A stretch of 64,000 bases of DNA from an uncultured Planctomycetota bacterium (GCA_963752285.1 CAVVXN010000001.1:1-64000); one strand, 5' to 3'. Positions 328 to 64,000 are shown, counted from the stretch's first letter. Notes: generated from the letters alone by a model not told the origin. Translations and numbers: made by a program.

Positions 328-508
328 CTCTCTCGCGAAGCCGACTCGAAAAGCTGCGTGACTTGGGTCGCCAGTTGAGACGGTCTCCTGACGCTTCCTT
401 GCGCTTCGCTGCACGATGTAAGGAAGCGGGCCGGATTCGGCGCACTTCGAGAGAGTCGCCGTAACGGTGCAACGACGCGCAGGTTGCGGCGAGGAGGCGC
501 AACGAGGG

Positions 509-557
509 TGGAGCGCCCGATCGGGTTCGAACCGACGACATTCAGCTTGGGAAGCTG
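509..557 (-). repeat. 3' 49 nt of tRNA-Gly(CCC), att core copy 1
   Basis: Minus strand reads CAGC-TTCCCAA-GCTG...GGTTCGAACC...GCGCTCCA: anticodon arm, T arm and CCA end. The 5' half of the tRNA is absent. Confidence 0.9.
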
Positions 558-710
558 CGCGCCCCCCATCGCAAGTCACGCACCCGCCCAAGGTTACGAC
601 GCTCGCCAGAAGCCGTTGAGACCTGGGTTGAGACGAGCCGAAAGGCCCGCTTGTGACGGCCTCTGGTCCTTGCTCCGGCGGGCCGCGGCAGGTGCAGCAG
701 CAGCCCGCGC

Positions 711-818
711 TTCGGGACCGGCGATCACGTCCCGGAGCTCCTCGCCGCCCACCGCGCCGACGCGCGAGCTCGGCGCATCGCCGGGAACCGAGCACGACGA
801 TGTGTCGTCTGCGCCTGA
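711..818 (+). pseudogene. C-terminal tail of an rve/DDE-type transposase
   Basis: FGTGDHVPELLAAHRADARARRIAGNRARRCVVCA*, homologous to tails at 35690, 47477, 56660, 61335 and 61871. Confidence 0.6.
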
Positions 819-985
819 CCACGCCTCGCTCTTTGCCACCCCCGACCCGCCCCTACGGTCCGGCACCCACGCGCGCACCGCGCTCACGCGGACCGCGGCC
901 CCCGATCTGGCACGGGCCGGATGCCGAGATCTCGAACGAAAAGCCCCGTTCGAACTGAGAAGCAGCACGGCCGCGTTGCTCCGGT

Positions 986-1029
986 GCCGAGCTCTCGGCG
1001 AAGTCATCCAAAGGGACTGGCACGCACCT
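986..1029 (+). repeat. ~45-bp cassette-boundary / IS-end motif (degenerate copy)
   Basis: GCCGAGCTCTCGGCGAAGTCATCCAAAGGGACTGGCACGCACCT matches the repeated motif. Confidence 0.7.
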
Positions 1030-1309
1030 GGGCAATCTCCCTGATCTCCCGCTCATCAGTCGGACTTGCCTCCAAGTCGACGGGCCAGCATCTGCACAAA
1101 CGACCACGCTAATGCCCCGCCCGCTGCTCCCACTGAACATGTCCCCATTGGGTCCTCTGGTGGCCATGCCGCCCAGAAGAGTTGCACTCATGAAAACCAG
1201 GAGTGCGATCCTCTCAGCTGCCGAACTCGTGGCAAGAGTAAGCTCCCGCCAAGCAAACCACCGCATACGGATTGAGATGGATGGCCCACAGGAAGAATGG
1301 CCAGTCTCG

Positions 1310-6344: not shown

Positions 6345-7554
6345 TTAGGGGCAAGGCCCCCGATCAGGGGGGATAGGATGAGGCGGCCTGGGGCAATTCG
6401 GATCTGGGTTCACGTGACCAACGTCGGGGCCAACGTAACCTCCGCCACACAAGCCAACAAGTCCGCACCACATCGAAGCTCGTGAGGTCCAAGGGACGGC
6501 ATCACAAGGGAGACAGCACGCCTTCAAGATGTCACCGGTCCAGTCGCCGCAGGAGTAGTCCGACGTCACCTTGTGTGTGTTCTGGGCGGCGGCCTTCTTG
6601 AGGCAGTCCTCGATCTGCGTCGGGGTGATAGTCGTGCACGGAATCCCGGTCGCGCTCTTCTTTGGCGCGTAGGGCTCCGGCCCATACATGCCGTACCAGA
6701 CGAACCACTCACTCGAAAAGGTAGGAGTGACGCGTCGGCAGTGTTGCTCCTGACCTTTCGTCCCTTCATTCGCAGTCGGGTCTCCGGAGGGGCCCCCCCA
6801 GAAGTCTCCAAGATAGGTCGCATGCCCGGACGCATCGGTAATCTTGATATACGCGTGATTGGCGGGGCCGCCCTGATCGAGCGTTCGGTAACAGACTTCT
6901 ACGATCTCGCCACTCGGGTCTCTTGCCACGGCTGGGCTGCTTCCGGCATACTCGAACAGACATGGTCCCGCTACGTAGCCGCGCGGATCCCGCTGCAGGA
7001 ACCTCCCCAGCACCGGGTTGCTGTACCTCGCCCGGTAGTAGTAGAGCCCCGTCTCCTCGTCTCGGAAGCGACCCGTGTACGTCCAGTGCTGCCCGAGCGG
7101 ATCCGACGACTGCGTCTGCCCACCCCGCGTGATCGTGATCTTCCCATACGGATCGTAGCGGTAGGACACCGCCGTCGCTTCGTTCATGTCCGTGACCGCC
7201 ATCACGGACCCCAGAGCGTTCTTGTGGTAGAAGGACCGGGTCGTCTCGCTCGTGTTCTGGTCCGAGTCGAAGTCGAGCACGTCCGCCTGCTCGAGCATCA
7301 ACACGTTGTCGATCCCCTGGCCGAACACGAAGTCCTGCTTCCAGGTGTTGGACCCGTCGTAGGTCGCGATCGTCTCCACGCCCGCGTAGATGTAGCGCTC
7401 GGTGACGCCGCCCGTCACGGCCTTCTCCACCCGTCGGCCCAGCGCGTCGTACTTGTAGGTCGCCACCGTCGTGCCGCCGTTCTTGACCCGGCAGATCTCA
7501 TTACGGTAGTTGTACTCGTACGTCAAGGTCCCGTCGTCGGACAGGTTCCCGTTG
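6345..7554 (-). pseudogene. Rhs (family B) C-terminal core and toxin domain, separated from its upstream part by an insertion
   Basis: NGNLSDDG...GLYYYRARY...RFLQRDPRG...DPSG, then a unique CT. The gene continues at 10216-10643. Confidence 0.85.
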
Positions 7555-7811
7555 AACGAAACCGCTCCGCGGTAGCCCAGAGCCGAGCATGCGAGCGTGG
7601 TCGGGCGCTCACCTGATCTTCTCTGCTGCGCCCATTCGATCCGGTACGTGTGCGCGGCGTCGCGCGGCATTCTGGGTTCCAAGCCGTTTGCACGCCGAGA
7701 GCGATCTTCGCTGGCATCAAGATGCCGAATTCGGGAAATAGGGGGCCCCTCTCTCCCATCTAGACCTGGCACCGGGAGCACCACCTCCCGACGCCGCAGA
7801 AAGGAGCCCCC

Positions 7812-8660
7812 GTGACTGAACTTCGCAAGAGGATGCTCGAGGATCTGCGGATCCGCAACCGTTCTCCGCACACCCAGCGAAACTACGTCCACCACGTCGC
7901 CGCGTTCGCGCGCCACTTCGGCCGCTCGCCCGAGGAACTCGGGCCTGAACACGTCCGTATCTACCAGGTCCACCTCGTCCAGGAACGCGGCGTCTCCTTC
8001 AGCACGTTCAACATCGCTGTCTGCGCCCTGCGCTTCCTCTACCGCGTGACCCTCGGCAGGGACTGGGCCCTCAAGCGCATTCCGTTCGCGAGGCCTGCGT
8101 GCAAGTTGCCCGTCGTGCTCAGCCCCGCCGAGGTCGGCCGCTTCCTCGCCGTGGTCGAGAACCTCAAGCACCGCGCGATGCTCATGGTCGCCTACTCCGG
8201 TGGCTTGCGCGTCTCCGAGGTCTCCCGCCTGCGCGTCGCGGACATCGACAGCAAGCGCATGGTGATCCACGTGCGTGCCGCCAAGGGCCGCAAGGACCGC
8301 TTCGTCCCCCTCTCGCCACGCCTTCTGGAGCAGTTGCGCGCCTACTGGCGCGAGGAACGCCCGAAGGAATACCTCTTCCCGGGGCGGACTCCGCTTTGCC
8401 CCATCGCGACCGGATCGATCCGGCAGGTCTGCCGCATCGCAGCCGAGAAGGCCGGGCTCGATCGGCGCGTCACGCCGCACACGCTGCGCCACTGCTTCGC
8501 GACCCACCTGCTCGAGAGCGGCACCGACGTGCGTACCATCCAGCTCCTGCTCGGCCACGGCGCCCTGCGCACCACCACGCGCTACACGCACGTCTCGACG
8601 GAAAAGCTGCGTTCGGTCCGGACGCCGCTCGACCTCCTCCCCGATGTGAACACCCCGTAG
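7812..8660 (+). CDS. Tyrosine recombinase/integrase (XerD-like, SAM-type N-domain)
   Basis: YSGGLRVSE, KGRKDRFVPL and HTLRHCFATHLLESGTDVRTIQLLLGH...TTRY motifs. Confidence 0.95.
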   Translation: MTELRKRMLEDLRIRNRSPHTQRNYVHHVAAFARHFGRSPEELGPEHVRIYQVHLVQERGVSFSTFNIAVCALRFLYRVTLGRDWALKRIPFARPACKLPVVLSPAEVGRFLAVVENLKHRAMLMVAYSGGLRVSEVSRLRVADIDSKRMVIHVRAAKGRKDRFVPLSPRLLEQLRAYWREERPKEYLFPGRTPLCPIATGSIRQVCRIAAEKAGLDRRVTPHTLRHCFATHLLESGTDVRTIQLLLGHGALRTTTRYTHVSTEKLRSVRTPLDLLPDVNTP

Positions 8661-8667
8661 GGTCGTC

Positions 8668-9867
8668 ATGTCACGGCCGCCTCTCGAGGTGGCCGACATC
8701 TTCCGCGCCCACGGCCCGGAGTTCCTCCGGGCTCGTGGCGCGGTCGCTTCGTCGGCCAAGAAGAAGGTACTCCGAAAGCTGGCTGCGTGTCGCACGGCCG
8801 CTCTCGGCGGCCACGTCGACGCGTGTAGCGAGGGCTGCGGCTACGAGAAGATCAGCTACAACTCCTGCCGGGATCGCCACTGCCCCAAGTGCCAGGCAGC
8901 GGCCCGCGGCGAATGGCTGGAGGCGCGCCAAGCCGACCTCCTGCCCGTGGGGTACTTCCACGTCGTCTTCACAGTGCCCGCGCAGATCGCCGAGATCGCC
9001 CTGCAGAACAAGCGCGTGATGTACGACATCCTCTTCCGCGCCTCGGCCGAGACCCTCAAGGAGATCGCCGCCGACCCCAAGCACCTGGGCGCCCGCATCG
9101 GCTTCATCGGCCTGCTCCACACCTGGGGGCAGAGCCTCCACCACCATCCCCACATCCACTACGTCGTTCCCGGCGGTGGGCTCGATCCCGAGGGCGCCCG
9201 CTGGATCTCCTGCCGCCCAGGCTTCTTTCTGCCCGTACGGGTGCTCGGCCGGCTCTTCCGCGGCAAGTTCCTCGCGCTCGTGCGACGCGCCTTCGAGCGC
9301 AGCCAATTGACCTTCCAGGGCCGCCTGGCTCCGCTGCAGGACCCGCAGGCGTTCCGTGACTTCCTCGCCCCACTCTACGAAGCAGACTGGGTCGTCTACG
9401 CCAAGCCGCCCTTCGGCGGGCCCGAGCAGGTGCTCAAGTGCCTCGCGCGCTACACCCACCGCGTCGCCATCGCCAACCGCCGCCTGCTCTCGCTGCACGA
9501 CGGCCGCGTCCGCTTCCGCTACAAGGACTATGCCCACGGAAGCCGACAGCGGGTCATGGAGCTCGATGCGACCGAGTTCATCCGCCGCTTCCTGCTCCAC
9601 GTCCTTCCCAAGGGCTTCGTGCACATCCGCCATTTCGGCTTCATGGCCAATCCCGTTCGCCGGGAGCGTCTGAACCGTTGCAGGGAGTTGCTCCACGCAG
9701 TCGCCCCGGCCGAGCCCACCAGCGATGCCGCCGACGCTGAAACCGGATGCGGGGAATCGACGACCATCTGTCCGAACTGCAAGCAAGGCCGCATCACCCG
9801 CCACAAACTGGATCCGGCGCCGGGCCCCGCCCCGCTCCGGACAGCTCCCGGAATCGACAGCTCGTGA
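8668..9867 (+). CDS. IS91-family (HUH/Y2) transposase with Zn-binding N-domain
   Basis: YNSCRDRHCPKCQ, YFHVVFTVP, LHTWG..HPHIH and LARYTHRVAI motifs. Confidence 0.95.
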   Translation: MSRPPLEVADIFRAHGPEFLRARGAVASSAKKKVLRKLAACRTAALGGHVDACSEGCGYEKISYNSCRDRHCPKCQAAARGEWLEARQADLLPVGYFHVVFTVPAQIAEIALQNKRVMYDILFRASAETLKEIAADPKHLGARIGFIGLLHTWGQSLHHHPHIHYVVPGGGLDPEGARWISCRPGFFLPVRVLGRLFRGKFLALVRRAFERSQLTFQGRLAPLQDPQAFRDFLAPLYEADWVVYAKPPFGGPEQVLKCLARYTHRVAIANRRLLSLHDGRVRFRYKDYAHGSRQRVMELDATEFIRRFLLHVLPKGFVHIRHFGFMANPVRRERLNRCRELLHAVAPAEPTSDAADAETGCGESTTICPNCKQGRITRHKLDPAPGPAPLRTAPGIDSS

Positions 9868-10215
9868 ACCGCCGACGAACGCCTCATCGGCCGACCTGCC
9901 GAACGGACGCCACAGGGCGCACCGCACGTCCCACTGCGGCCCCGTGGGCTGGATCCCGCCGCCTATGTACCTCCAGCGCGCCGCTTCGCACAGCGAGGAT
10001 CCCGAATTCAGCCTGCGTAGAGCTGCGCGCCTCTAGGCGAGAGACCATCCTCCGTGCCGATGGCCCCTCGCACATCTGCTGCGACCACGACGAACCCCCA
10101 TAGCCCCAGCGCGGCTTCGCTCAACCAGCTTCTTCCGCACATGGTCGGCAAGGTACGCCTCGCTCACACACGGGCGGTCTCCGTCACGCCGACCACATGC
10201 GGAAGAAGCCTATGC

Positions 10216-10643
10216 GTTGTCGTCCCAGCTGTGGGTGACGCCGCCGACGGAGGTGTACTGGTTCAGGGTGTTGGTGCTGTAGCTGGTCGTCGTCGCGGAC
10301 TGTCCGTACGGGGTCACCACGACGGAAGTCCTGTTCCCGTCGTCGTCGTAGTTGTACTCGATCTTCTTCGTGTAGGCCGCCCCGCTCGGGCTGTCGGGCG
10401 ATGCCGAGCCCATCCAGGCGACCGTCAAGCGCCGGGCCTTGTCGTACTCGAAGGCGTCCCCGGAGGAGCCCGAGGCCCCGTAGCGCTCGTAGACCCGGTC
10501 GTGGACGTCGTTGTAGGCGTAGTCGAGCCTGACGATCGTCGAGGGGCTCGAGGTCTCGTGGTCGATGCTCGTGACCTCCTCCCGGAACCCGCCGTACGTG
10601 TTCGCCTGCGTCGTTCCGTTCTGGAAGGTCGTACCCTTGGGCC
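10216..10643 (-). pseudogene. Rhs family B internal fragment (upstream part of 6345-7554)
   Basis: Near-identical to 19290-19716. Confidence 0.85.
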
Positions 10644-10799
10644 GCGTGGTCGACTTCCACGCGCTTCGGACGACGTTCGTGTCCTGGCTCGCGATGAACG
10701 GCGCCCACCCCCGGGTCGCCCAGGCCCTCGCGCGCCACGCCTCCGTCGAGACGACCATGGCGCGGTACACGGACCTCGCGCTGGTGGATCTGCGGGGGG
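10639..10799 (+). pseudogene. Tyrosine integrase C-terminal fragment
   Basis: GRVVDFHALRTTFVSWLAMNGAHPRVAQALARH, copy of 21508-21668. Confidence 0.85.
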
Positions 10800-10802
10800 C
10801 CG

Positions 10803-11058: not shown

Positions 11059-11288
11059 CCTTCGGGGTACTCCGCTCGGCCCCGAACTCTCACGGGTCGG
11101 CTGCCGAGAACTCAAACGAGAGGGCCCGTTCGATCTACGTAGCAGCGGGGATAGCTCCTCCAGTCCCCCCATCCGCCCCTACTTCGACGCCTCGCGGCGC
11201 GTCAGTAGGTGCACTGTGATGCCTCTGCCGGCCGCTCCTCCCGACTCCGAAGCCGACCCCTCGATCATGCTGGTCGCACCGACATCGA
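11059..11288. repeat. ~230-bp copy of 14205-14434 (3' end of an immunity gene plus downstream flank)
   Basis: Direct sequence match. Confidence 0.85.
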
Positions 11289-11317: not shown

Positions 11318-11836
11318 TCAGTTATCTTGGCGGCGATGAGACTCAGCCGGCCTGACGCGGATCTCGACAGTACGAACGTCACTTGTATTGATGCAGACAC
11401 CTGTATCCGGGGTCAATGTGTACCCCTCAACCCATTCGCCTGATCCAATGACGACTTCGTCCGGCCTCATCGGTTCCTCCCGAGGGGCAACGCGAGCAAT
11501 CCAGTTGCCGCGTCGGACTGCCGTGCCTTTGTGCTCCGCGAACCACCTGAATGCTATGTCGCCAGCAAGCGCTTGAACCTGCAGCGGATGCCACGCTTCA
11601 CCTTGGACATGCCCGGTTTCGTCGGCCTTCACAGAAAGCGCAAGGTCCAGGTTGGCAGCGGCGAGCACATCGATCGTTGCGGGTGTCCGCCACGTACCCG
11701 CGCAAGCAGCAAGCAAGCAGGCAAACACGACGAGGCCGCATCGGGGCCATGCAGGAGGCTCCCGTGAATACAGTCTCGCACCACGCACGACGTGACTATC
11801 ACTAGCGCCCATGATTGGTATTCCGATCGTAGTCAT
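11318..11836 (-). CDS. Putative immunity lipoprotein
   Basis: Follows the Rhs CT. Lipobox-like LVVFACLLAAC. The true start may be downstream of 11836. Confidence 0.6.
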   Translation of the reverse strand: MTTIGIPIMGASDSHVVRGARLYSREPPAWPRCGLVVFACLLAACAGTWRTPATIDVLAAANLDLALSVKADETGHVQGEAWHPLQVQALAGDIAFRWFAEHKGTAVRRGNWIARVAPREEPMRPDEVVIGSGEWVEGYTLTPDTGVCINTSDVRTVEIRVRPAESHRRQDN

Positions 11837-16372: not shown

Positions 16373-16439
16373 ATCGGGCTCTGGCCGACGACGTTCCCCT
16401 GCTGGTCTAGGATCGTGGGCTTCCCGTACACGTCGTAGG

Positions 16440-51996: not shown

Positions 51997-52545
51997 GAGA
52001 TCGACTCCTCCGGTCGGTTCCGATGATCCTCGGGCGACGCCTACACGCGCCCCAGCCCCCGGGTGCGTCGTCCGGAAGCGCGCCACGGGCGACAGCGTAC
52101 AGCGAAGCGCCCCCCGGGAGCTTCCGAGCCAATGACCGGCCGCGCCCGGGCGCGCGGCCGCCGGCCTACCGGCCTCCCGCGATCTCCTCCACGTCGTCGT
52201 CGTCGCGCGTAGCACGCGGGGCCGGACGGCGCGCACCGGCGAGGCGGCGGCGCCGGCGGGGGCGGTAACGGCGGCCGTAAATCCGTACACGCGTCAATGC
52301 GGCCGCGGCGTCGCCGCCGCGGAAGGGTCACGCGACCGAACTCGCCGGCGCGCCGCGATTGGCAGGCGGGGCGAAACCGAGCCGCAGAAGCTGCGTGACT
52401 TGGGTCGCCACTCGAGACGGTCTCCTGACGCTTCCTCGCACTTCGCTGCACGATGTAAGCGAGCGCGGGTGGATCCGCGTTATCGAAGAGGATCGCCGCA
52501 AACGTGCGACGACGCGCGAGTTGCGGCGAGGAGGCGCAACGAAGG

Positions 52546-52594
52546 TGGAGCGCCCGATCGGGCTCGAACCGACGACATTCAGCTTGGGAAGCTG
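52546..52594 (-). repeat. 3' 49 nt of tRNA-Gly(CCC), att core copy 3
   Basis: One mismatch to 509-557. Confidence 0.9.
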
Positions 52595-52831
52595 AGTGCC
52601 CCGACTCGTAAGTCGCGCGCAGTACAGGAGTTACAGATCTTGAGAATGGCCACTGGGACGGATCCTATCGATTTCCAGAGGAACGACCTGCTACGGTGTC
52701 CTGCGAGCCGTTCCGTGCGTTTCGGATTTTGAGAATGGCCGGTGCCGGCCCGCTGGCCGCCAGGGGGCCCACGAAGCGCCGTGGGTCGGTGGCTACAATC
52801 CGGGAACGTCCCCTCGCACCCGGAGACATCC

Positions 52832-53044
52832 ATGAAGTTCCGCATCGTGATCGAACCCGACGAGGATGGGGTCTTCGTGGCGAGTTGCCCGAGTCTCCCG
52901 GGCTGCCATTCGCAGGGCCGGACCCGGGAGGAGGCGCGCGCCAACATCCAGGAGGCGGTCGAGCTCTACCTGGAGTCGCTCCGGGAGCACGGGGAGCCGA
53001 TCCCGCCCGGGATCACGGAGGACGTGGTCGAGGCATCCGGTTGA
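52832..53044 (+). CDS. hicB: HicB-family antitoxin
   Basis: IEPDEDGVFVASCPSLPGCHSQGRTREEARANIQEAVELYLE. Confidence 0.92.
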   Translation: MKFRIVIEPDEDGVFVASCPSLPGCHSQGRTREEARANIQEAVELYLESLREHGEPIPPGITEDVVEASG

Positions 53045-53100
53045 GCCGGCTCCCGGTGGTCTCCGGCCGCGAGGCCGTTCGGGCGTTCGCGAGGATCTCC
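53041..53100 (+). pseudogene. hicA: HicA toxin, first ~19 codons only
   Basis: MSRLPVVSGREAVRAFARI overlaps the hicB stop, then unrelated sequence follows. Confidence 0.7.
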
Positions 53101-53229
53101 GAGCTGGTGGAGAGCATTGGCGGCCGTATCCACTATGACGACATCGACATGTCCGTGCACACTGGGACGATCTACGTCCACGGAGAACAAGACTTCGACA
53201 TCGTCCTTCCTGAGTTTCAGGCGCCTCCG

Positions 53230-53585
53230 ACACCGCGAGACATGATCTGCACGACGATCCTGGTCCGGGCTTCCCGGCCCGTTCACGCATCCCCCGGCCT
53301 GATCGCGGCGGCCGCCGCGTCGCCTCGGTGCCGAGTACTCGGCGGAATCGTCCAGAAGGAACTGGCACACACCTCGGGCGGATATCGCGGCCGCTACCCG
53401 ATATCTCGGCTCCGGGAGCCCCTTCCTTTCGCGCCCATCCGCTCTAAACCACTGCCATCACGGCACTTGCACGTCGTCCAAGAGTAGCCACACCCAACTG
53501 AGAAGCAGCACCCGGTACAAGTCGAACGAAACGTTTCGTTCGAACTGAGAAGAAGCAGAGTCTCGTCGCCCTCCGTCCGCCCCTA
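53230..53585. repeat. Flank shared with 62073-62428, includes boundary motif (53330-53374) and a 22-bp palindrome
   Basis: Direct sequence match. Confidence 0.85.
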
Positions 53586-54071
53586 CTTGGATCCTTCGCG
53601 GCGCGCCAGTAGGTGCACTTTGATGACTCTGCGGGTCGCCCCTCCCGAATCCGAAGCCGACCCCTCGATTGTGCTGGCCGCACCCACATTGACCCATCCG
53701 TCCTTGTACTCCGGTTCAGGATCGCCAGAAACTCTGAATCTCCACCCGCCGAGCCGAATGGTCTTAGTGCGCGCGCGCCAATACCACTCAAGCACATAAG
53801 GACCGAGGGAAAGGAACTCGTAACCTGTCCCATCCCATCGGTCAGTCTGCCCCGGGTCCGTCAACCTCCTAATGGCGTAAAGAAGACCCTCGACGGGAAG
53901 AAACTCGACGGGAGAGGATGAGGCTGGAATCAAGGGACTGGGACTCACGGGAGGAGCGTGCTGGGGAACATCGGCGCAGGTCAGCCCATGGCCGCGGCCA
54001 ATCCAATACCCAACGCCCCCGGCCAACAGTACGGCCGTGGCAGAGATGATCCCGATCGCTCTGTGCGTCAA
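53583..54071 (-). CDS. Putative immunity protein (paralogue 2 of 3)
   Basis: Homologous to 14325 and 62426. Confidence 0.75.
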   Translation of the reverse strand: MTHRAIGIISATAVLLAGGVGYWIGRGHGLTCADVPQHAPPVSPSPLIPASSSPVEFLPVEGLLYAIRRLTDPGQTDRWDGTGYEFLSLGPYVLEWYWRARTKTIRLGGWRFRVSGDPEPEYKDGWVNVGAASTIEGSASDSGGATRRVIKVHLLARREGSK

Positions 54072-55170
54072 TCGTCCCTCCTTCGCCTCGCGCGCGCCTC
54101 GTCGTCGCTTCCAGAAGTTCCCTCACGCTCATGGCGCGCCTTCTCGTCCTTCCTACTCTCGTCTTCTCTCAATCCCGCTCTGTTGGCGTCGCCCTCAGAT
54201 CCCAGTTGATTGACGTCCTCTTCGCTCGTGCCATCCTGTACGTATTCCTCTCCCACGTCCGCCCCCATTGACTCAGCCAATTCCTCCTCGTCGACCACGT
54301 GCCCGTATTCATGATCAAGCAACTTGTCATTGCCCTCCGGATACAGGATGACCAGCCGGCGGAGGCGGGATCGCCACTGCATCTTGTGATAGCCAGGGCG
54401 ATTGCAGGGTTCGACCGACCACTCGTGCCACCAGTCTGACAACGTTCGTGCGTCAACAAGCGTGCCCTCCTCTCCATCGGGATGTTCTGTCCCGATTGGA
54501 TCGGCCGCGCTCTCCGGAATCGGCTCCTCGTCCGGGTGCTCCTCGTTGTACTCTTGGATAGCCTCCCGAGCGTTCTCACGAGACTGCTTGGGATCATTGC
54601 TTCGCTCGTAAGGAACCCTAGTCACAGGCGCCAAGCCCGAGGGGTCTACCCTAATCGTTGGCGTTGATGCCACGTATTCGAAGAGGTTGATTCCTTCCGC
54701 GCAGCCTGCGGGATCCCTCTGCAAGAGCCTACCAGTAGCCGGATCATAACTTCTGTCGCGGTAGTAGTAGAGCCCGTCCTCCGGATCGTACTCCCGCCCC
54801 GTGAAGAGGTACGGGTTCCCGTCCGGGCTCTGGGCGACGGCGGTCCCCTGCTGGCCGAGGATCGTCGGCTTCCCGTACACGTCGTACGTCACCCATTCGA
54901 CGACGCTCCCCCCGGGCTCGGAGATCTCGGTCACCGACCCCAGCGCCTGCTGGTGGTACGTGAAGCGAAGCACCTCGCTCGTGTTCTGGTTTCCGTTCAC
55001 GTCCGCCTGATCCGCCCGGTCCATGACGCGTGGGCGGTCGATCCCGTCCTCGTAGACGTAGCGCGCCTGCCAGACGTCCTGCCCGTCGTACTCTTCGACG
55101 ACCTGCTGTGCGTCGAGCACGTAGCGCGTCGTCGCGCCGCCCGACACGGCCTTCTCGACCCGCCGGCCCG
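54068..55170 (-). pseudogene. Rhs family A stub with HEYGH CT (paralogue 2)
   Basis: Begins at GRRVEKAVSGG. DPSGL and LLDHEYGH motifs. Confidence 0.85.
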
Positions 55171-55570
55171 GCGCATCCGTCGTGCTGCGGGTCGAGACTG
55201 TCCTGCGGGCGCGAGGCGCCGCCGTGCGTCCCGACCGCGGACCTGCCCCGAATTCGGCCATCGAGAGGATGCTATCGCCCCTCGGGTCGGTGCGCCAAGG
55301 TGACGCCGTGGAGGGCATGTGGATGCGACTTCGTTGCGGGCCCGCTTGGGGCGGCTGTCGTCGAGCGGGCGGCGGTCGGGTGGAAGCGGTCCGAGTCTGG
55401 CCAGCCTGGCTGCCTCCGTTGACTGCGCGATGGAGCCGCCCCGTCCCAAGTCCGCGCGCGACGCGGCATCCGAAGGTCGCCTGGGTCCTCGGCCTTCCAT
55501 CTTGCGGTCGGGTGCGTCGCGACTTGTGACGCCAGATGCTGGCGCCCTTGGAGCACAGTTGAGACGGTTT
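54790..55570. repeat. Near-identical block to about 59540-60320 (Rhs stub, ~370-bp spacer, left att arm)
   Basis: Direct sequence match, including the same Rhs truncation point. Confidence 0.85.
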
Positions 55571-55692
55571 CTTGACCTTTCGTTGCCGCTCGTTGCGCTT
55601 TGTCAGGAACGGACGGCCTCGGCGCCGCGCTCGTATCGGGCGCCGCAACGTGGCAACGACGCGCAGGTTGCGGCGAGGAGGCGCAACGAGGG

Positions 55693-55741
55693 TGGAGCGC
55701 CCGATCGGGTTCGAACCGACGACATTCAGCTTGGGAAGCTG
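55693..55741 (-). repeat. 3' 49 nt of tRNA-Gly(CCC), att core copy 4
   Basis: Identical to 509-557. Confidence 0.9.
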
Positions 55742-56018
55742 ACGCACGCGAGTCGTAAGTCTAGCCCCAACCAGGGGTTACGGATCTTGAGAATGGCCAC
55801 TGTGACGTACTTTGTCGATTCCTCCAGGATCGACCTGCTACGGTGTCCTGCGGGCCATTCTGTGCGTTGGGGAAGTTGAGAGTGGCGCCCGGGGCGGGGC
55901 GTGACGCGTCCCCCCCCCTCCGACCGACCACGGGACCCGGGTGCGTGCTGCACGGCTCGCTTGCCTGACCCGCTCCGCGGGGATCGGCGCATCCTCGGAC
56001 GGTATACTCGCCAGCGCC

Positions 56019-56264
56019 GTGCCCATCCTCTCCTACACCGTCCTCTACGAGCCGCAGCCGGACGGCGGGTTCACCGTGCTCGTGCCGGCGTTGCCCGGTT
56101 GCGTCACCGAGGGCGACACGATCGAGGAGGCCCGGCGCATGGCCGCCGATGCCATCCGCGCCTACTGCGAGAGCCTCCTCCAGGATGGCGAGCCCCTGCC
56201 CCCCGACGTCCCGGAGCCCCCGCGTCACGAGCGGATCGAGGTCTCTCTCGCCGGCAGCCGCTGA
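56019..56264 (+). CDS. hicB: HicB-family antitoxin
   Basis: YTVLYEPQPDGGFTVLVPALPGCVTEGDTIEEARRMAADAI. Confidence 0.92.
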   Translation: MPILSYTVLYEPQPDGGFTVLVPALPGCVTEGDTIEEARRMAADAIRAYCESLLQDGEPLPPDVPEPPRHERIEVSLAGSR

Positions 56265-56267
56265 TCC

Positions 56268-56495
56268 ATGGCGGCCCTGCCCGTCCTCCGGCCGCGCGCG
56301 GTCGTAGCCGCCCTGGAGCGAGCCGGGTACGTCGTCCATCACCAGACGGGTAGCCATGTCGTTCTCAAGCACCCGCGACCCCCTGCGCGGCGCGTGGTGG
56401 TGCCGATGCATGGACGCGATCTCAAGAGAGGCACGCTCCGGAGTATCCTCCGCGAGGCCCAGCTGACGGTCGAGGCGTTCATCGATCTGCTCTGA
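56268..56495 (+). CDS. hicA: HicA-family toxin
   Basis: ALERAGY...QTGSHVVLKH...VVVPMHGRDLKRGTLRSIL. Confidence 0.93.
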   Translation: MAALPVLRPRAVVAALERAGYVVHHQTGSHVVLKHPRPPARRVVVPMHGRDLKRGTLRSILREAQLTVEAFIDLL

Positions 56496-56659
56496 TTCGT
56501 GAGCGTCCGGGAGAGCGCCCGCTTGGCGACCCAGTCGTGCTCAAACAAGTTGGCTGCGCTCCGGGAGGACGTCGTCGATCCCACACCACCCACGTTCGCG
56601 CGCTGCTCGAGAAGAAGCGTCGCGGCGAGCGCGACGTGGTCGTGAACCGCTTCCTGGCC

Positions 56660-56982
56660 CTCCCGCACTCCGCCTTTCGCGGAGAGACTCCCGACGACGT
56701 CTACTTCGGGACCGGCGACCACGTCCCGGAGCTCCTCGCCACCCGGCGCCGCGAAGCCCGTGCCGCCGGCCTCGCCGCGAACCGCGCCGCGCGATGCGGG
56801 GTGTGCAGCGCCTGACGACACCGAGGAGGAGGAACCCGACACGGCGGGTCCTATGCCCGGTCGGCCCGACTGGGGGGCGCCGCCGCCACACTTACACACG
56901 CCACGGCCGTCATCGCGGCGGGAGATCCGCGGCCCGGATGTTCGAGTCCTCGGCAGAAATCTCCAGAAGGGATTGACACGCA
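56660..56982 (+). repeat. Transposase tail (to 56815) and boundary motif (56940-56982)
   Basis: PHSAFRGETPDDVYFGTGDHVPELLATRRREARAA. Confidence 0.75.
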
Positions 56983-57047
56983 ACACGGCTACATACCGTC
57001 CTCCCTTCCCAAGTTGACGTGGCGCACCTGACACACAGCAGGGCTTT

Positions 57048-57818
57048 CTATTCATTGCAATGCACGACGAACTCCGCTTCCGCCACTGGCAGACGTCCAG
57101 TTGGCGTCGTAATCCGTCGATAGTGAATGCTCCTGCCGTCGCCCAGCTCTTGCAGCACGGTCCCGCAACTGCGGGCATCGACTCGAACGTAGGCGCCAAA
57201 GACAAATGGCTTCCGTGCCGAGTCCTGCTCATCATCGAAGAGCGGATCGTCACTCTCAGTGAGTCGCGTGAATTCCAGCTCGACGGCGCCGTCTTGACCC
57301 GTTTTTCCGATCGCGCACGTCCATGCCCTCTCGCCCTGAGCAAGCCTGAATTCGATCGCCCTGCGGATACTCTCGACGTCCTCTTCGGTTCGCATCACAT
57401 CCTTCGTCGGGGCCACCATTACACGCGCGCCAGCAACGGGTCTATTCCGCGCGTCGCGCAAGAGTATTCTGACTCGCACGAGGGCCGTCACTGTAACGCA
57501 ACGCGACATCCGCCTCAGACCCCCGTCCGGCTGCGGGCGACTCCGAAGCGCCTCGCCCGCAAGGAGCAGTACAGTGACCAACCCCATTACTCCTAAGACG
57601 ACAAGTAGCCGCCTTCTCCCGCCGCCAATCGCTCTGCTAGCCACCGTGCGACTCTCTCTCCGCCGCACATGCAGCGCAGTCGAGCCTTGCACGGAACACT
57701 CGGTGGATCTCGTTGCTTCGTGCTGCGCTCCGCGAGATCCGGGGGACATTCGGCAACATGGCTGCCGGTTTGCTGGCGGTGGCCATGACGGGTTGTAGCT
57801 GGCTGGGACAACGCCCAA
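57048..57818 (-). CDS. Putative immunity protein homologous to 47887-48552
   Basis: TM segment LLVVLGVMGLVTVLLLAG. VRVRILLRDARNRPVAGARV. Start uncertain. Confidence 0.62.
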   Translation of the reverse strand: MGVVPASYNPSWPPPANRQPCCRMSPGSRGAQHEATRSTECSVQGSTALHVRRRESRTVASRAIGGGRRRLLVVLGVMGLVTVLLLAGEALRSRPQPDGGLRRMSRCVTVTALVRVRILLRDARNRPVAGARVMVAPTKDVMRTEEDVESIRRAIEFRLAQGERAWTCAIGKTGQDGAVELEFTRLTESDDPLFDDEQDSARKPFVFGAYVRVDARSCGTVLQELGDGRSIHYRRITTPTGRLPVAEAEFVVHCNE

Positions 57819-58570
57819 TCCGAGAGAACTCGTCCGTAGCGCGCTCCCAGGTGCGCTTCCTCATGCCCGGCGGCGTTCGATGCCGACCCAAAGCAGTTGC
57901 AGTCTCCGTCGAAGTCCGGATTGCCATATTCGGCACGACCCCTTCAAAGCGAATGCTCATCAGGCTCATCGCTCGGCTCCTGACGTCACCACCTGTTGTT
58001 GTGCATCCGCCCAGAGTGGGGCGCTCGCCCAAACGCCCCTGCGGAGTAAGGACGGCTATGAGGTCTTCCGCACGCCTCCCACCCGATCGTGAGCCGTCAG
58101 TCAGATCCTCGGGCATAGTAGACCTGTACTGGGCAAAGCTCTGCTGTCCATCGACAGCATGGTACACAATTTGACTTAGCCGCGCTACGGCAATGCTAGA
58201 TCCTCCGCAAACCGTTGGTGATATTGCCGACCGGAAGTTCCTCCTCTCGAAGTCGGCCCCCTTGCCTGCGTAGATGGCCATTCCTCGAGTCGGCCCCGAT
58301 GCGGACCCAGTACGCAGGTCCTTGCGCGCCGGCCTCCAGTGCAGCGTGAAAAGCGCTGTGTCTAGGCGCAGCATCTCATCAACTTCTTCGGCTTGTGACC
58401 CTGTCACCGCGGGTAGGGGGGTTCGAAATGACGGCACTACAGGACGGCGGCCCGGCGAACCGAGGCCCGCCGGCACCGGGCACATCGCCGACGCTGTGGA
58501 GAGTAGCAGGCCCCTCCCGCACGAGCGGGAGTCCGGCTTTCGTTGCGACGCAGGAAAAAGCACAGACACA

Positions 58571-59919
58571 TCACCTTCCCCTTTGGGCCCGGTGCACTAT
58601 TTGCTCTATGCCAAGTCCGCTGGACTGGTCAGCGTCGTGCCAGCCACTCTGCCCGCCCCTGGGGGCGTCTCGCTCTGAATCCGCCGGATGCCCGCTCCGC
58701 CCGTCCTCGTGCTCCTCCGCATAGTGCCTGCCCTCATGTAACAGCGTCTCTAGGAGATCGCTCTCCCCCCAGTGCTCCCAGGTGGTCACGGCGTTATCTA
58801 CCGACGAGTACGGTATCCACATCACACCGTCAGAGTACGCTCCCATTGCGTGCTTACCTTCCACCAGAAAGACGGGGTCCGAGTCGGGCGCAAGCGTCAT
58901 TAGACCATTCTCCATAGCATCGTGAACCCATTTCGGGCCGAAGTCGAGGAGGTCCTGCCTCACCATGTCGAGAATGTCTTGTCGTGTCGGCTTGACGCCA
59001 CTTCCATTTAGATCATTTCTGGCGGCATTGAATGTCGCCAGAGCGGCATCGTACGCCGCCGCGGCTTCATCGTAGGCCGTCTGCGCCGCACTGGCGGCTC
59101 GATTGGCCGCATCACGGTCCTCTTTGGCCTTCTGCAGGGCGTCCCACAGATCGTCCAGCTCAGAGTCTCTACCACGAACAAGCGGACCCACATCGCTGCA
59201 TCTGCGCTTCTTGCATGCTGCCTTCCATGCCGAAAGGGCAATGTCATAAGCCTTCTGCGCCGCAGCCGCTTCCTCCTTCGCCTTCTCCAGCGCATCTGAT
59301 GCTCTCGTGTACGCCTTGTAGGCCGCATTGAGCTTTGCGCGCGCAGCAAGTAGCGCCTGCACTTTGGGGTCCCTTGTTTCGAGGCCGAGGGGGTCGACAG
59401 CTGTACAGGGGGCGCTCGTCGTGTACTCGTATGCAGATGGGCCGTCCACATACCCGGCTGGATCGCGCTGCTGAAAGCGCCCGGTGGAAGGATCGTAGAC
59501 TCTCGTCCGGAAGTGGAACTTCCCATCTTCGGCGTCGTACTCCCGCCCCGTGAAGAGGTACGGGTTCCCGTCCGGGCTCTGGGCGACGGCGGTCCCCTGC
59601 TGGCCGAGGATCGTGGGCTTCCCGTACACGTCGTACGTCACCCACTCGACGACGCTCCCACCGGGCTCGGAGACCTCCGTCACCGATCCCAGCGCCTGCT
59701 GGTGGTACGTGAAGCGGAGCACCTCGGTCGTGTTCTGGTTCCCGTTCACGTCCGCCTGGTCGGCCCGGTCCATGACGCGCGGGCGGTCGATCCCGTCCTC
59801 GTAGACGTAGCGCGCCTGCCAGACGTCCTGCCCGTCGTACTCTTCGACGACCTGCTGTGCGTCGAGCACGTAGCGCGTCGTCGCGCCGCCCGACACGGCC
59901 TTCTCGACCCGCCGGCCCG
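58571..59919 (-). pseudogene. Rhs family A stub with coiled-coil/HEGRH metallopeptidase-like CT
   Basis: DPLGL and LETLLHEGRHY. Homologous layout to the CT at 48566. Confidence 0.85.
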
Positions 59920-60441
59920 GCGCATCCGTCGTGCTGCGGGTCGAGACTGTCCTGCGGGCGCGAGGCGCCGCCGTGCGTCCCGACCGCGGACCTGCCCCGA
60001 ATTCGGCCATCGAGAGGATGCTATCGCCCCTCGGGTCGGTGCGCCAAGGTGACGCCGTGGAGGGCATGTGGATGCGACTTCGTTGCGGGCCCGCTTGGGG
60101 CGGCTGTCGTCGAGCGGGCGGCGGTCGGGTGGAAGCGGTCCGAGTCTGGCCAGCCTGGCTGCCTCCGTTGACTGCGCGATGGAGCCGCCCCGTCCCAAGT
60201 CCGCGCGCGACGCGGCATCCGAAGGTCGCCTGGGTCCTCGGCCTTCCATCTTGCGGTCGGGTGCATCGCGACTTGTGACGCCAAATGCTGACGCCCTTGG
60301 AGCACAGTTGAGACGGTCTCCTGACGCTTCCTTGCGCTTCGCTGCACGATGTAAGCGAGCGGACGCGGAGTCGCGCGATCGTAGAGCAACGCCCTAAGCG
60401 TGCAAGGACGCGCAGGTTGCGGCGAGGAGGCGCAACGGGGG

Positions 60442-60490
60442 TGGAGCGCCCGATCGGGTTCGAACCGACGACATCCAGCTTGGGAAGCTG
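60442..60490 (-). repeat. 3' 49 nt of tRNA-Gly(CCC), att core copy 5
   Basis: One mismatch to 509-557. Confidence 0.9.
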
Positions 60491-60717
60491 CCGCGAGTCG
60501 GTCGTAAGTCGCGGCCCACCAGCATCTTACGGATCTTGAGAACTGCCACTGTGACGGATTCTGTCGAAACCCCCAGGATCCACCTGCTACGGTGCCATGC
60601 GGGCCGTTCCAGGCGTTCCGGAAGTTGAGAACGGGGGCGCAGGGCCCCCCGAGCCCGAGGTGCGCCGACCTCCCTCGGGCAGGGGTCACCACCTCCCGCA
60701 GAGTAGGATCGCCACTC

Positions 60718-60945
60718 ATGGACTACCGCGACCGGATCACCATCGACCCCACGCGTCGCGCCGGAAAGCCCTGCATCCGGGACCTGCGGATCACGGTCTA
60801 CGACGTCCTCGAGTACCTCGCCTCCGGCATGACCGAGGCGGAGATCCTCGCGGACTTCCCCGACCTCGAGGCCGAGGATGTCCGGGCGTGCCTCGCGTAC
60901 GCCGCGGATCGAGAGCGCAAGTTCTCCTCCATCCCGCCGCGGTGA
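60718..60945 (+). CDS. DUF433 putative antitoxin
   Basis: RITIDPTRRAGKPCIRDLRITVYDVLEYLASGMTEAEILADFPDL. Confidence 0.92.
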   Translation: MDYRDRITIDPTRRAGKPCIRDLRITVYDVLEYLASGMTEAEILADFPDLEAEDVRACLAYAADRERKFSSIPPR

Positions 60946-60949
60946 CGAC

Positions 60950-61282
60950 CTGCGCCTCCTGCTGGACCAGAACCTGTCGCCTCGCTTGGCACGGGCACTC
61001 GAAGACGTGTACCCGGGAGCCGTCCACGTGAGAGATGTCGGCTTGGCCCACGCGAGCGACACGGCAGTCTGGGACCACGCACTGGCCCGCGACCTGATCA
61101 TCGTGTCCAAGGACGCGGACTTCCACCAGCGGATCTTCCTCTCGGCTCCGCCGCCGAAGGTAATATGGATCCGCCTGGGCAACTGCACGACGAACGAGAT
61201 CGAGGCCCTCCTCCGGCAGCACGAACACGCCATTCGTGAGTTCGCCGACGATGCGACGGCCGCCTTCCTCGCCGTGGGGTAA
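60950..61282 (+). CDS. DUF5615 PIN-like toxin
   Basis: LLLDQNLS...DTAVWDHA...IIVSKDADF...KVIWIRLGN. Start codon atypical or uncertain. Confidence 0.85.
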   Translation: MRLLLDQNLSPRLARALEDVYPGAVHVRDVGLAHASDTAVWDHALARDLIIVSKDADFHQRIFLSAPPPKVIWIRLGNCTTNEIEALLRQHEHAIREFADDATAAFLAVG

Positions 61283-61334
61283 CAGCGAGCGGAGCGGCGC
61301 GGTCTGCGCGGGCCGAGCGCCTCGCCACCGCCTC

Positions 61335-62218
61335 CTACGTCTCCGAGCACAACTCGAAGATCCCACACTCGGCCTTCCAGCGGCAGACCCCGGACGCAGC
61401 GTACTTCGGCACGAGCGCCCACGTCCCCGAGCTCCTCGCCGCGCATCGCCGCGAGGCTCGTGCCCCCTGGCTCGCGGCCAATCGCGCGGCACGATGCAGG
61501 GTGTGCTCCGCCTGACGACACCGAGGAGGACCTCCGCCCACCTGAGCCCCATGCACGGTCGGCGCGAACGCGGGTGCCACCGTCTCGCTCACGCCCTCCG
61601 CCGCCGGATCGCGGCAGGGGGACCCGCGGCCCCGGTGTTCGAGTACTCGGCAGATTTCTCCAGAAGGGATTGGCACGCACCTCGGCTCCATGCCGTCCTC
61701 CCTTCCCAAGTTGACGTGGCGCACTTGACACGCAACTCCGGCCTGCGCCCGACACAGGTTGACGTCCGGCGCGGGCCAACGTGCCCCTACCTGGGTTCAC
61801 GAGACGGATACCGGAAGGAACTGGCACACACCGCCGCGGATTCCGTATGCTCCGCCGATGCACCGAGCGTGCTACGTCTCCGAGCCCAACGCCAAGATCC
61901 CGCACTCGGCCTTCCAGGGCCAGACTCCGGACGAGGTCTACTTCGGCACCGGCGACCACGTCCCCGAGCTCCTCGCCACCCGGCGCCGCGAAGCCCGTGC
62001 CGCCCGCCTCGCCGCCAACCGCGCTGCGCGATGCGGGGTGTGCACCGCCTGACGACACCGAGGAGGACCTCCGACACCGCGAGACATCATCTGCACGACG
62101 ATCCTGGTCCGGGCTTCCCGGCCCGTTCACGCATCCCCCGGCCTGATCGCGGCGGCCGCCGCGTCGCCTCGGTGCCGAGTACTCGGCGGAATCGTCCAGA
62201 AGGAACTGGCACACACCT
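61335..62218 (+). repeat. Two tandem transposase tails (to 61515 and 62052), each followed by the boundary motif (61637-61682, 62174-62218; partial copy 61811-61832)
   Basis: KIPHSAFQGQTPDEVYFGTGDHVPELL...CGVCTA*. Confidence 0.75.
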
Positions 62219-62425
62219 TGGGGGGATATCGCGGCCGCTACCCGATATCTCGGCTCCGGGAGCCCCTTCCTTTCGCGCCCATCCGCTCTAAACCACTGCC
62301 ATCACGGCACTTGCACGTCGTCCAAGAGTAGCCACACCCAACTGAGAAGCAGCACCGGTACAAGTCGAACGAAACGTTTCGTTCGAACTGAGAAGAAGCA
62401 GAGTCCCGTCGCTCTCCGTCCGCCC

Positions 62426-62914
62426 CTACTTGGGTCCTTCTCGACGCGCCAGCAGGTGCACTTTGATGACTCTGCCGGCCGCTCCTGCCGACTCCGAAGC
62501 CGACCCCTCGATCGTGCTGGTCGCACCGACATCGACCCACCCGTCCTTGTAGTCCGGTGCAGGATCGCGAGAAACCTTAAATCTCCACCCGCCGAGCCGG
62601 ATGGACTTCGTCCGCGCGCGCCAATACCAATCACCCACATGAGGCCCCAGGGAGAGGAACTCGTATCCCGTCCCATTCCATGCGCCACTATGCCCGGGAT
62701 CCGTCAGCTGCCGAATGGCGTGGAGAAGACCCTCGACTGGGAGAAACTCAACCGGAGAGGATGAGGCTGGAATCAAAGCATTGACTCTAGCAGGAGGGGC
62801 GCTCGGGGGAACTTCGACACAGGTCAGTCCGTGGCCCCGGCCAATCCAATACCCCACGCCCCCCGCCAATAGGACGGCCGTGGTAGCGAGGATCGCAAGC
62901 GCTCTCTGCATCAA
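62426..62914 (-). CDS. Putative immunity protein (paralogue 3 of 3)
   Basis: Very close to 14325-14813. Confidence 0.75.
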   Translation of the reverse strand: MMQRALAILATTAVLLAGGVGYWIGRGHGLTCVEVPPSAPPARVNALIPASSSPVEFLPVEGLLHAIRQLTDPGHSGAWNGTGYEFLSLGPHVGDWYWRARTKSIRLGGWRFKVSRDPAPDYKDGWVDVGATSTIEGSASESAGAAGRVIKVHLLARREGPK

Positions 62915-64000
62915 TCGTCCCTCCTGCGCCTCTCGCGTGCCTCGTCGTCGCTTCCGGCCGTACCGACACGCTCATGGCGCCTCTTCTCGTCCTTTCTGCT
63001 CTCTTCCTTCCTCGAGTCGGCTCTGTTGGCGTCGCCGGCAGCTCCCAGTTGACTTGCGTCCTCGCCACTCGTGCCATCTTGTACGTATTCCTCGCCCACG
63101 TCCATCCCCATTGACTCAGCCAACCTTTCCTCGTCGACCACGTGCCCGTATTCGTGATCAAGCAACTTGTCGTCGCCCTCCGGATATAGGATGACAAGCC
63201 GGAGGAGCCTGGATCGCCACTGCATCTTGTGATAGCCAGGGCGATTGCAGGACTCGATCGACCACGTGTGCTCCCAGTCTGGCCACGTGAGCGCGTCGAC
63301 AAGCGCGCCCTCCTCTCCATCCGGATGTTGTGTCCCAATGGGATCGGCAGCGCTCTCAGGGATCGGCTCCTCGTCCGGGTGTTCATCGTTATAGTCATGG
63401 ATGGCCTCACGAGCATTCTCTCGATCCTGCTTAGGGTCACCGGTGCGTTCGTAAGAAATTCTCGTCACAGGTGCCAAGCCTGACGGGTCAGCCTTAACTG
63501 TTGGCGTAGAGGTCACGTATTCGATAAGATTGAAGCCTTCCGAGTATCCTGAAGGATCTCTTTGCACGAATCGGCCGGCGGAGGGGTCATATGTCCTCGC
63601 CCTATAAAAGTACAGCCCATCCTCGGCGTCGTACTCCCGCCCCGTGAACAGGTACGGGTTCCCGACCGGGCTCTGGGCGACGGCGGTCCCCTGCTGGTCG
63701 AGGACCCTCGGCTTCCCGTACACGTCGTACGTCACCCACTCGACGACGCTCCCGCCCGGCTCCGAGAGCTCCGTCACCGACCCCAGCGCCTGCTGGTGGT
63801 ACGTGAAGCGGAGCACCTCGGTCGTGTTCTGGTTCCCGTTGACGTCCGCCTGGTCGGCCCGGTCCATGACGCGCGGGCGGTCGATCCCGTCCTCGTAGAC
63901 GTAGCGGGCCTGCCAGACGTCCTGGCCGTCGTACTCCTCGACGACCTGCTGTGCGTCGAGCACATACCGGGTCGTCGCGCCGCCCGACACGGCCTTCTCG
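62911..64000 (-). CDS. Rhs family A core with HEYGH CT (paralogue 3; cut by window edge)
   Basis: Core motifs, DPSGL and LLDHEYGH. Confidence 0.85.
   Translation of the reverse strand, partial: EKAVSGGATTRYVLDAQQVVEEYDGQDVWQARYVYEDGIDRPRVMDRADQADVNGNQNTTEVLRFTYHQQALGSVTELSEPGGSVVEWVTYDVYGKPRVLDQQGTAVAQSPVGNPYLFTGREYDAEDGLYFYRARTYDPSAGRFVQRDPSGYSEGFNLIEYVTSTPTVKADPSGLAPVTRISYERTGDPKQDRENAREAIHDYNDEHPDEEPIPESAADPIGTQHPDGEEGALVDALTWPDWEHTWSIESCNRPGYHKMQWRSRLLRLVILYPEGDDKLLDHEYGHVVDEERLAESMGMDVGEEYVQDGTSGEDASQLGAAGDANRADSRKEESRKDEKRRHERVGTAGSDDEARERRRRDD

Follow-up and report, generated by a model that had tools for sequence, protein, structure and literature searches.

Orphan Rhs toxin modules are usually attributed to homologous recombination alone. 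In enterobacterial arrays, modules made of a core end, a C-terminal toxin region (CT) and an immunity gene lie co-oriented downstream of a full-length rhs gene, and their exchange is assumed to be homologous. To our knowledge, these classical arrays have not been described as punctuated by attachment (att) sites derived from a tRNA gene or as flanked by integrase remnants, and the arrival of new modules beside an rhs gene is rarely visible. Here we describe a 64-kb stretch of DNA from an uncultured Planctomycetota bacterium (CAVVXN010000001.1:1-64000; hereafter the window, with all coordinates counted over the whole stretch) in which Rhs modules are punctuated by copies of the 3' end of a tRNA-Gly(CCC). 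It is likely that this array, which is longer than 64 kb, was built by serial site-specific integration of related elements at one tRNA-Gly(CCC) gene and then decayed heavily.

The separate parts of this arrangement have been published before. At the ssrA locus of Dehalococcoides, tandem islands follow one small-RNA gene and are bounded by repeats of its 3' end, and units without integration genes are discussed there as mobilisable in cis and as arising by accretion (PMC3146451). As in the window, the repeats have extra conservation around them and each island has one cargo family, which is rdhA there and the Rhs CT here. The two systems differ in that the Dehalococcoides islands target a tmRNA, with a 20-bp repeat and the serine recombinase DsiB, whereas the elements of the window have a tyrosine integrase and target tRNA-Gly, with a repeat of 49 nt. 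A further difference is that the cargo of the window is a polymorphic toxin whose pieces also appear to recombine homologously with each other. In the tycheposons and tRNA islands of Prochlorococcus, repeated integration at one tRNA pushes older elements inward (bioRxiv 10.1101/2020.12.28.424599), and these islands, like the window, hold scattered fragmented integrases and partial tRNAs from older events. Their cargo, however, consists of nutrient-uptake and defence genes of cyanobacteria, with no Rhs or polymorphic toxin cargo in the portion of the account available. The Aux3 cluster of the type VI secretion system of Vibrio cholerae is a toxin-immunity module in an att-flanked, integrase-mobilised element that is also retained in a truncated, 'grounded' form (PMC7721734). 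It is a single element and not an array, its effector is not an Rhs CT with core-end homology, and the available part of that report describes no tRNA with stacked copies. The literature searched, which did not extend to subscription journals, yielded no account of an Rhs array that tRNA att sites punctuate. Since tandem tRNA and tmRNA islands, integrase-less att-bounded remnants and att-flanked toxin-immunity modules are all on record, what is new here is the combination of known processes.

The tRNA-Gly repeats and their arms

The 49-nt string of the tRNA-Gly 3' end matches the window five times, always on the plus strand, against 0.00 matches expected from 100 shuffles. The tRNA sense of the array is on the minus strand, and the att copies are given on that strand. 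Three of the cores are exact (509-557, 22084-22132 and 55693-55741) and two carry one mismatch each (52546-52594 and 60442-60490). The same 49 nt form the 3' end, from the anticodon stem to the CCA, of a 76-nt tRNA-Gly(CCC) in contigs of related metagenome-assembled genomes (MAGs), and therefore their identity as tRNA fragments is real. Neither ARAGORN nor an Rfam gathering scan found a whole tRNA in the window.

String matches and an att-region profile of 339 nt together define copy 1 (369-707), copy 2 (21944-22282), copy 3 (52406-52744), copy 4 (55553-55891) and copy 5 (60302-60640). The profile also recovers copy 6 (47264-47436), which aligns in two pieces, 47264-47308 to profile positions 2-46 and 47307-47436 to positions 177-306. 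This copy has therefore suffered an internal deletion of 130 nt, in which the left arm was largely lost along with 36 nt from the start of the core, so that of the core only the final 13 nt survive, at 47307-47319. At a cut-off of E<=10 the profile found no further degenerate copy in the window, for example near 10.9, 14.1 or 35.6 kb. Similarity at those three places had been considered as att remnants and was rejected, as it belongs to a separate segment of about 200 nt that lies downstream of cassettes. From start to start the copies are spaced by 21575 nt, about 25.2 kb, about 5.2 kb, 3147 nt and 4749 nt, with 3.5 kb left to the window end. An earlier note on this DNA had reported five co-oriented tRNA-Gly(CCC) fragments of 49 nt, a deleted sixth copy, conserved sequence on both sides and intervals of these sizes, and in all these respects our measurements agree with it.

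The conserved flanks extend about 140 nt to the left and about 145 nt to the right of each core. The right arm exists in two types, type A at copies 1 and 6 and type B at copies 2-5. When the copies are compared in their ten pairs, the cores match at 47-49 of 49 positions, whereas identity is 62-94% between left arms and 43-75% between right arms. Copy 1 matches copy 2 at 95% from the integrase end through the left arm to the core (1-583 against 21578-22158), but past the core edge the two carry unrelated right arms, A in one and B in the other, the switch falling exactly at the edge. Because the cores are far better kept than the arms and the arms switch at the core edge, we favour serial site-specific integration of diverged relatives as the origin of the junctions. 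A GTTGAGA motif lies at -135 of the core in four of the five window copies and at -136 and -137 in two loci of relatives (L003 and L004), and it is present again in both types of right arm. Its relaxed form KTTGAGAM matches the window 14 times, 12 of them within att regions, where 4.3 matches would be expected overall. These motifs are candidate arm-type integrase sites.

A simple scan of the copy-2 att region found no promoter or terminator. The left arms (400-445 and the equivalent positions) hold two hairpin-capable stretches, where this terminator scan gave nothing. One is of the type CGCTTCCTT...AAGGAAGCG, with both sides altered between copies, and the other, GTTGCG...CGCAAC, is immediately beyond the tRNA 3' end.

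Integrases and the loci of relatives

A Phage_integrase match at 20858-21766 (E 1e-20) belongs to an open reading frame (ORF) that ends about 320 nt left of copy 2. Homologs of this family are about 412-415 aa long, and the named ones are from Planctomycetota. The BLASTP alignment of the copy-2 integrase to the 415-aa homolog P0004 begins only at residue 117. When this full-length homolog was used in tblastn, four remnants were found in the window, all on the plus strand. The leftmost (1-153) covers residues 350-403, is cut by the window edge and marks the right end of a unit lying further left. A second (10589-10801, residues 301-380) has lost the junction expected to adjoin it. The third, at copy 2 (20873-21742, residues 115-407 of 415, also detected by Phage_integrase), lacks the N-terminal arm-binding part, and the fourth (34863-35195, residues 1-112) marks a destroyed junction. 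All four are on the strand and the side where the accretion model places the integrase. No full-length integrase or excisionase-type gene was found among all 369 frames of at least 90 aa in the window (171 minus, 198 plus).

P0037, a protein of 185 aa flagged as belonging to the genome of the window, matches window positions 1-153 at 100% over residues 123-173, and its first 35 residues match the antisense of a GspC-like gene (31694-31798) at 97%; over its last 12 residues its frame differs from the reading of the window. These two matches suggest that the integrase left of copy 1 is probably truncated at its N-terminus and fused to a fragment of the GspC-like gene.

Genome contigs were scanned with the 49-mer, which gave nine loci on eight contigs from six MAGs, five labelled Planctomycetota or Planctomycetia and one Chloroflexia. 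For the gene content of these loci, Pfam was run on the 241 of 645 frames of at least 100 aa that passed a filter on GC by codon position, so that small or atypical genes were possibly missed. On four contigs the 49 nt are the end of the 76-nt tRNA-Gly(CCC); the four others, and one contig at an additional site, have them as fragments. The 5' side of the tRNA on four contigs carries a conserved PilJ-type chemoreceptor and che cluster. In locus L001 two homologs of the family integrase converge on the intact tRNA. L004 is colinear with the window through integrase, arm and fragment, at 70% identity over 1243 nt, and on the far side of the fragment its neighbouring unit has a homolog of the window's diverged Rhs (79% nucleotide identity). 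The earlier note had started from the use of tRNA 3' ends by tyrosine integrases and from the attP-like look of junctions between tandem elements, and the geometry in the relatives supports reading the repeats as such junctions and as att sites of an integrase family that targets tRNA-Gly(CCC).

The native 3' flank of the tRNA can be read in L005, where the site is apparently unoccupied, and beside the terminal fragments in L002 and L006, and each of the five left arms of the window is different from it. We had considered the window left arm as a native chromosomal flank of the tRNA and rejected this, because the unoccupied L005 site has another flank. The difference argues that the window arms are element-borne and that all five junctions are internal ones, joining element to element. 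The array extends beyond both ends of the window and, as the earlier note predicted, an intact tRNA-Gly is expected beyond the right edge.

Three of the relatives' loci also hold a remnant of about 30 nt of the tRNA, consisting of the T arm and acceptor, joined to a left arm like that of the window (L002 10741-10907, L005 4261-4341 and L006 9661-9819). These remnants sit about 145-185 nt past the tRNA or terminal fragment and look like an older, fossil junction that has been conserved across genomes.

Rhs modules and the remains of the units

Two full-length Rhs genes are on the minus strand, RhsA at 24000-30494 (about 2130 aa, with CT6 from 24000 to about 24750) and RhsB at 37864-44127 (with CT7 from 37864 to about 38560), with RHS_repeat matches at E 4e-39 and 2e-42. 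The RHS repeat-associated core TIGR03696 was found in RhsA and in the diverged Rhs. The RhsB locus, 38606-46263, is 90% identical to 24817-32475 and is thus a duplication of 7.7 kb. There are nine further Rhs core-end fragments, again all on the minus strand, and the core-end repeats are 85-95% identical. A PxxxxDPxGL-type motif was found in its strict pattern at seven sites, and variant forms were read at four more. The earlier note had counted 12 co-oriented CT regions. Their orientation stands, since all are on the minus strand, but the count does not, as there are 11 CTs behind a recognisable Rhs core end plus a core-end scar of 85 nt (16372-16456). Its statement that every interval holds a CT is correct, each att interval having at least one, with five in the first and two in the second.

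Nine sequence families account for the 11 CTs, and one of these families consists of CT4, CT9 and CT11. Every CT is followed by a small ORF on the same strand, coding-type divergence having been checked in one trio of these ORFs only, the 162-aa ORFs downstream of CT4, CT9 and CT11. In this trio and its CTs the differences are concentrated at third codon positions (for example 22, 20 and 43 differences), and this bias indicates that both these three CTs and their 162-aa ORFs are real genes under selection. None of the 11 CTs and no downstream ORF reached a Pfam or NCBIfam cut-off, and the hints to CT function are a weak DUF922 match in CT3 and an HEYGH motif in CT4, CT9 and CT11.

The orphans begin at the equivalent of RhsA residue 1395, 1570, 1594 or 1748, and inside the long intervals there are no att sites between them. 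A conserved segment of about 200 nt follows four cassettes (735-966, 11059-11288, 14122-14292 and 35684-35882). The core end and this downstream segment would make two homology arms, which is the layout expected of orphans that are exchanged homologously.

If the two destroyed junctions are included, the array comprises at least nine units, each with an Rhs CT and four with an integrase remnant at the expected end. In the first interval, an orphan module at 856-2908 consists of a frameshifted core end (2086-2908) and CT1 (856-2013, 386 aa). It is followed by the first diverged Rhs copy (6348-10647) with CT2 (6348 to about 6950), which is split by an IS91-family transposase and a tyrosine recombinase (7764-9864, plus strand). 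Next are an orphan module at 11321-14324, with a core fragment equivalent to RhsA residues 1395-1903, CT3 (11805-12338) and a downstream ORF (11321-11836), and another at 14328-16633, with a core fragment, CT4 (14813 to about 15400) and the 162-aa immunity-like ORF (14328-14813). The latter holds a double core-end motif, 'DPLGLSSGLAPV', which is a recombination scar. The second diverged Rhs copy (17973-20873), with CT5 at 17973-18644, has lost its N-terminus and abuts the truncated integrase at 20873 head to head. All of these Rhs modules are on the minus strand. In the second interval, the N-terminal integrase piece at 34863-35195 abuts a truncated fragment of an ISAZ013-type transposase and is preceded by a gene with a Cro/C1-type helix-turn-helix domain (33854-34288). 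The RhsB locus follows the destroyed junction.

The remaining units are short. Unit 3 (48569-51602, minus strand) has CT8 (48569-49438) and a frameshifted core end equivalent to RhsA residues 1594-1884, which is joined within about 130 nt, at the equivalent of residue 1594, to a GspC-like gene (50634-51602). As this gene sits two genes upstream of Rhs in the full loci, unit 3 is a deletion derivative of a full Rhs locus. Unit 4 (cargo at 52742-55177) carries a HicB-like gene (52742-53044, plus), for which no HicA partner was found, the 162-aa immunity-like ORF (53586-54071, minus), CT9 (54071-54631, minus) and a core end of 181 aa. Unit 5 (cargo at 55941-59926) carries a HicB-like gene (55941-56264, plus), HicA (56268-56495, plus), an ORF at 57640-58569 (minus), CT10 (58574-59380, minus) and again a core end of 181 aa. 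Unit 6 (60592-64000) is cut by the window edge and carries DUF433 (60592-60945, plus), DUF5615/PIN (60878-61282, plus), the 162-aa immunity-like ORF (62429-62914, minus), CT11 (62914-63474, minus) and a core end. The toxin-antitoxin-type genes just after the right arms of units 4, 5 and 6 are plausibly stabilisers that outlasted the decay. Units 4 (52595-55692) and 5 (55742-60441) are each enclosed by two complete att regions and gave no integrase match. They have one truncation junction (residue 1748) in common and yet differ in CT, immunity and toxin-antitoxin genes, and they share a block of 550 nt that is 93% identical and runs into the att region. Segment X (55177-55524), common to both, gave no informative match in the window or in the relatives' loci.

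Several neighbouring genes were also noted. A HEAT-repeat gene (30322-31503) and then a GspC/PDZ-like gene (31583-32614) lie upstream of RhsA, and this pair adjoins both full-length Rhs genes upstream (30322-32614 and 44131-46573). The GspC-like gene, which scores 38 bits with NCBIfam GspC_delta, below cut-off, recurs in unit 3. The two proteins may be Rhs accessory or export factors in this lineage. Between the RhsA locus and the helix-turn-helix regulator, the protein at 32618-33754 (minus) has RAMA and HSDR_N_2 domains, which are associated with restriction enzymes, and it may be defence cargo of an element. The IS91-family transposase in diverged Rhs copy 1 scores 436 bits and the tyrosine recombinase that precedes it is 298 aa long, the two being inserted as a pair. 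Beside att copy 6, the ORF at 46852-47337 (minus) has a coding-type codon bias and resembles a serine recombinase, with a weak match to Pfam Recombinase and a tblastx match to a resolvase ORF of L003. A segment of about 280-380 nt recurs four times at 73-79% identity (47474-47753, 56661-57037, 61361-61734 and 61898-62218), in units 3, 5 and 6, with a tandem pair in unit 6. It has no Pfam match and may be a family of small orphan genes.

Probable accretion and decay, and other explanations

The sequence of events that we infer is as follows. One tRNA-Gly(CCC) gene would have received, in its 3' 49 nt, a succession of related integrative elements, every one of which carried an Rhs toxin locus and, at the end nearest the tRNA, the gene for the tyrosine integrase that inserted it. 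With every new arrival the older elements would have moved away from the tRNA, and an attP-like junction would have stayed behind in which the 49-nt core is flanked by a left and a right arm. Decay in place would then have truncated the integrases, which presumably were active in the past, let insertion sequence elements in and, through deletions, cut some units to 3-5 kb. What the short units keep is a CT behind the final 181 codons of the Rhs core, an immunity-like gene and either a type II toxin-antitoxin module or an antitoxin gene by itself. The resulting pieces of core end, CT and immunity gene would be orphan Rhs modules of the ordinary kind, which homologous recombination could connect to either full-length Rhs gene or exchange between units. 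Site-specific integration thus seems to have imported the elements, and homologous and illegitimate recombination to have reshaped them, both having left their traces.

The earlier note had gone further and called the array integron-like, with toxin-immunity modules packaged as excisable units. In such an active system the att-bounded units, above all the integrase-less ones of 3-5 kb, would still be excised and re-inserted by a family integrase supplied in trans, and modules would be shuffled site-specifically. We consider this unlikely, although copies 2-5 keep their full arms of about 140 and 145 nt, GTTGAGA at fixed distances and near-perfect cores, and units 4 and 5 join a common backbone (core end, segment X and arms) to different CT, immunity and toxin-antitoxin cargo. 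In relative L002, likewise, a unit of 2.6 kb that lacks an integrase and holds a toxin-antitoxin-like pair separates the tRNA from a fragment, and in the Dehalococcoides ssrA islands the mobilisation of integrase-less att-bounded units with or by their neighbours is under discussion (PMC3146451). Against an active system is the lack of any full-length integrase or excisionase-type gene among the window frames described above. Moreover, the family integrase is not an integron integrase, as its TIGR02249 scores are 28.9-32.8 bits where the cut-off is 265 (which the IS91-linked recombinase at 7764-8657, with 205 bits, does not reach either), and the repeats, 49-mers that come from a tRNA and lie between arms of about 140 nt, are not attC-like, the Rfam gathering scan of the window being empty. 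Only four of the 11 CTs are alone between two att sites and the other seven share an interval with other CTs; in addition, cassettes without an N-terminus would, after a site-specific move, still require homologous recombination for expression. The system of the window is therefore not an integron, the integrase being far under the cut-off and the cassettes not one per site, and the integron-like label is no more than an analogy. The packaging claim does not hold as it was stated either, given how few CTs are alone between att sites, and it is weakened further in that unit 3 is a deletion derivative and two other short units share one truncation junction. It is equally unlikely that the integrase-less units of 3-5 kb, with a toxin-antitoxin stabiliser, an immunity gene, a CT, a core-end 'adapter' of 181 codons and a complete attP-like site at either end, are a propagating form that a family integrase in trans excises and puts back at tRNA-Gly, and that is then wired homologously, through the adapter, to a full-length Rhs.

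Could the array have been amplified in place? One or two elements would then have integrated once, growth would have come from unequal crossing-over between the core-end repeats of 450-900 nt with the att junctions as passengers, and cargo would have been replaced afterwards by homologous recombination. Core-end repeats of 85-95% identity do occur nine times, the RhsA and RhsB loci are a 7.7-kb duplication at 90% identity, units are linked by near-identical patches (98-99%), units 4 and 5 have their truncation junction in common, and one CT/immunity family is present three times. However, in-place duplication with neutral drift would erode the cores as much as the arms, and since the arms differ by 6-57% and the cores by 0-4% this explanation is disfavoured. 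The two unrelated right-arm types that switch exactly at the core edge and the four integrase remnants with different breakpoints, which imply several int-bearing elements, speak against it as well, and we give it only a slim chance. That the array is an assembly artefact, a spurious tandem pieced together from variants of a single island in different strains, is hardly credible. The source looks environmental and repeated cores and core ends might mislead an assembler, but the units diverge well beyond strain variants (arms 43-94% identical, CTs in nine unrelated families) and unique sequence flanks each junction on both sides. In addition, the longest contig listed with a protein flagged as belonging to the genome of the window measures 609,728 nt.

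Some observations weigh against serial integration followed by decay, the explanation that we prefer. The window has no intact tRNA-Gly, its own genome is not among the nine loci recovered with the 49-mer, and the tRNA end of the array is unseen. L004 is the only relative with Rhs beside the fragment, and the cargo of the other relatives is unrelated. With no full-length integrase or excisionase in the window, integrase activity would be historical. The common junction and 93% identical block of units 4 and 5 are explained no less well by the duplication of one unit, through unequal crossing-over or mobilisation in trans, than by two independent arrivals, and their core identity of 48/49 does not discriminate between duplication and independent arrival. 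Lastly, the integrase remnants at 20873-21742 (residues 115-407) and 34863-35195 (residues 1-112) cover exactly complementary residues with the C-terminal part 14 kb to the left of the N-terminal one, an order of which the simple model gives no account. Either two copies of one integrase lineage, disrupted by an insertion sequence, each lost a different side of the gene, or the stretch 20873-35195 represents an element in circular permutation, with copy 2 as its own attP.

Under serial integration and decay, the route by which new Rhs modules arrive becomes legible at this locus: tRNA-targeted integrative elements would each deliver an Rhs locus, and their wreckage would form the store of orphans. 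If the short att-bounded units were mobile in trans, the array would be a site-specific cassette system for polymorphic toxins, and if the units of 3-5 kb were a propagating form, Rhs toxins would be traded in planctomycetes in two steps, site-specific capture and then homologous wiring. If the short units are not mobile, the array is a clear and datable case of island accretion and decay in a little-studied phylum, and it would serve as a test locus for the turnover rate of such arrays. The locus thus shows one way in which bacteria may gather spare toxin genes.

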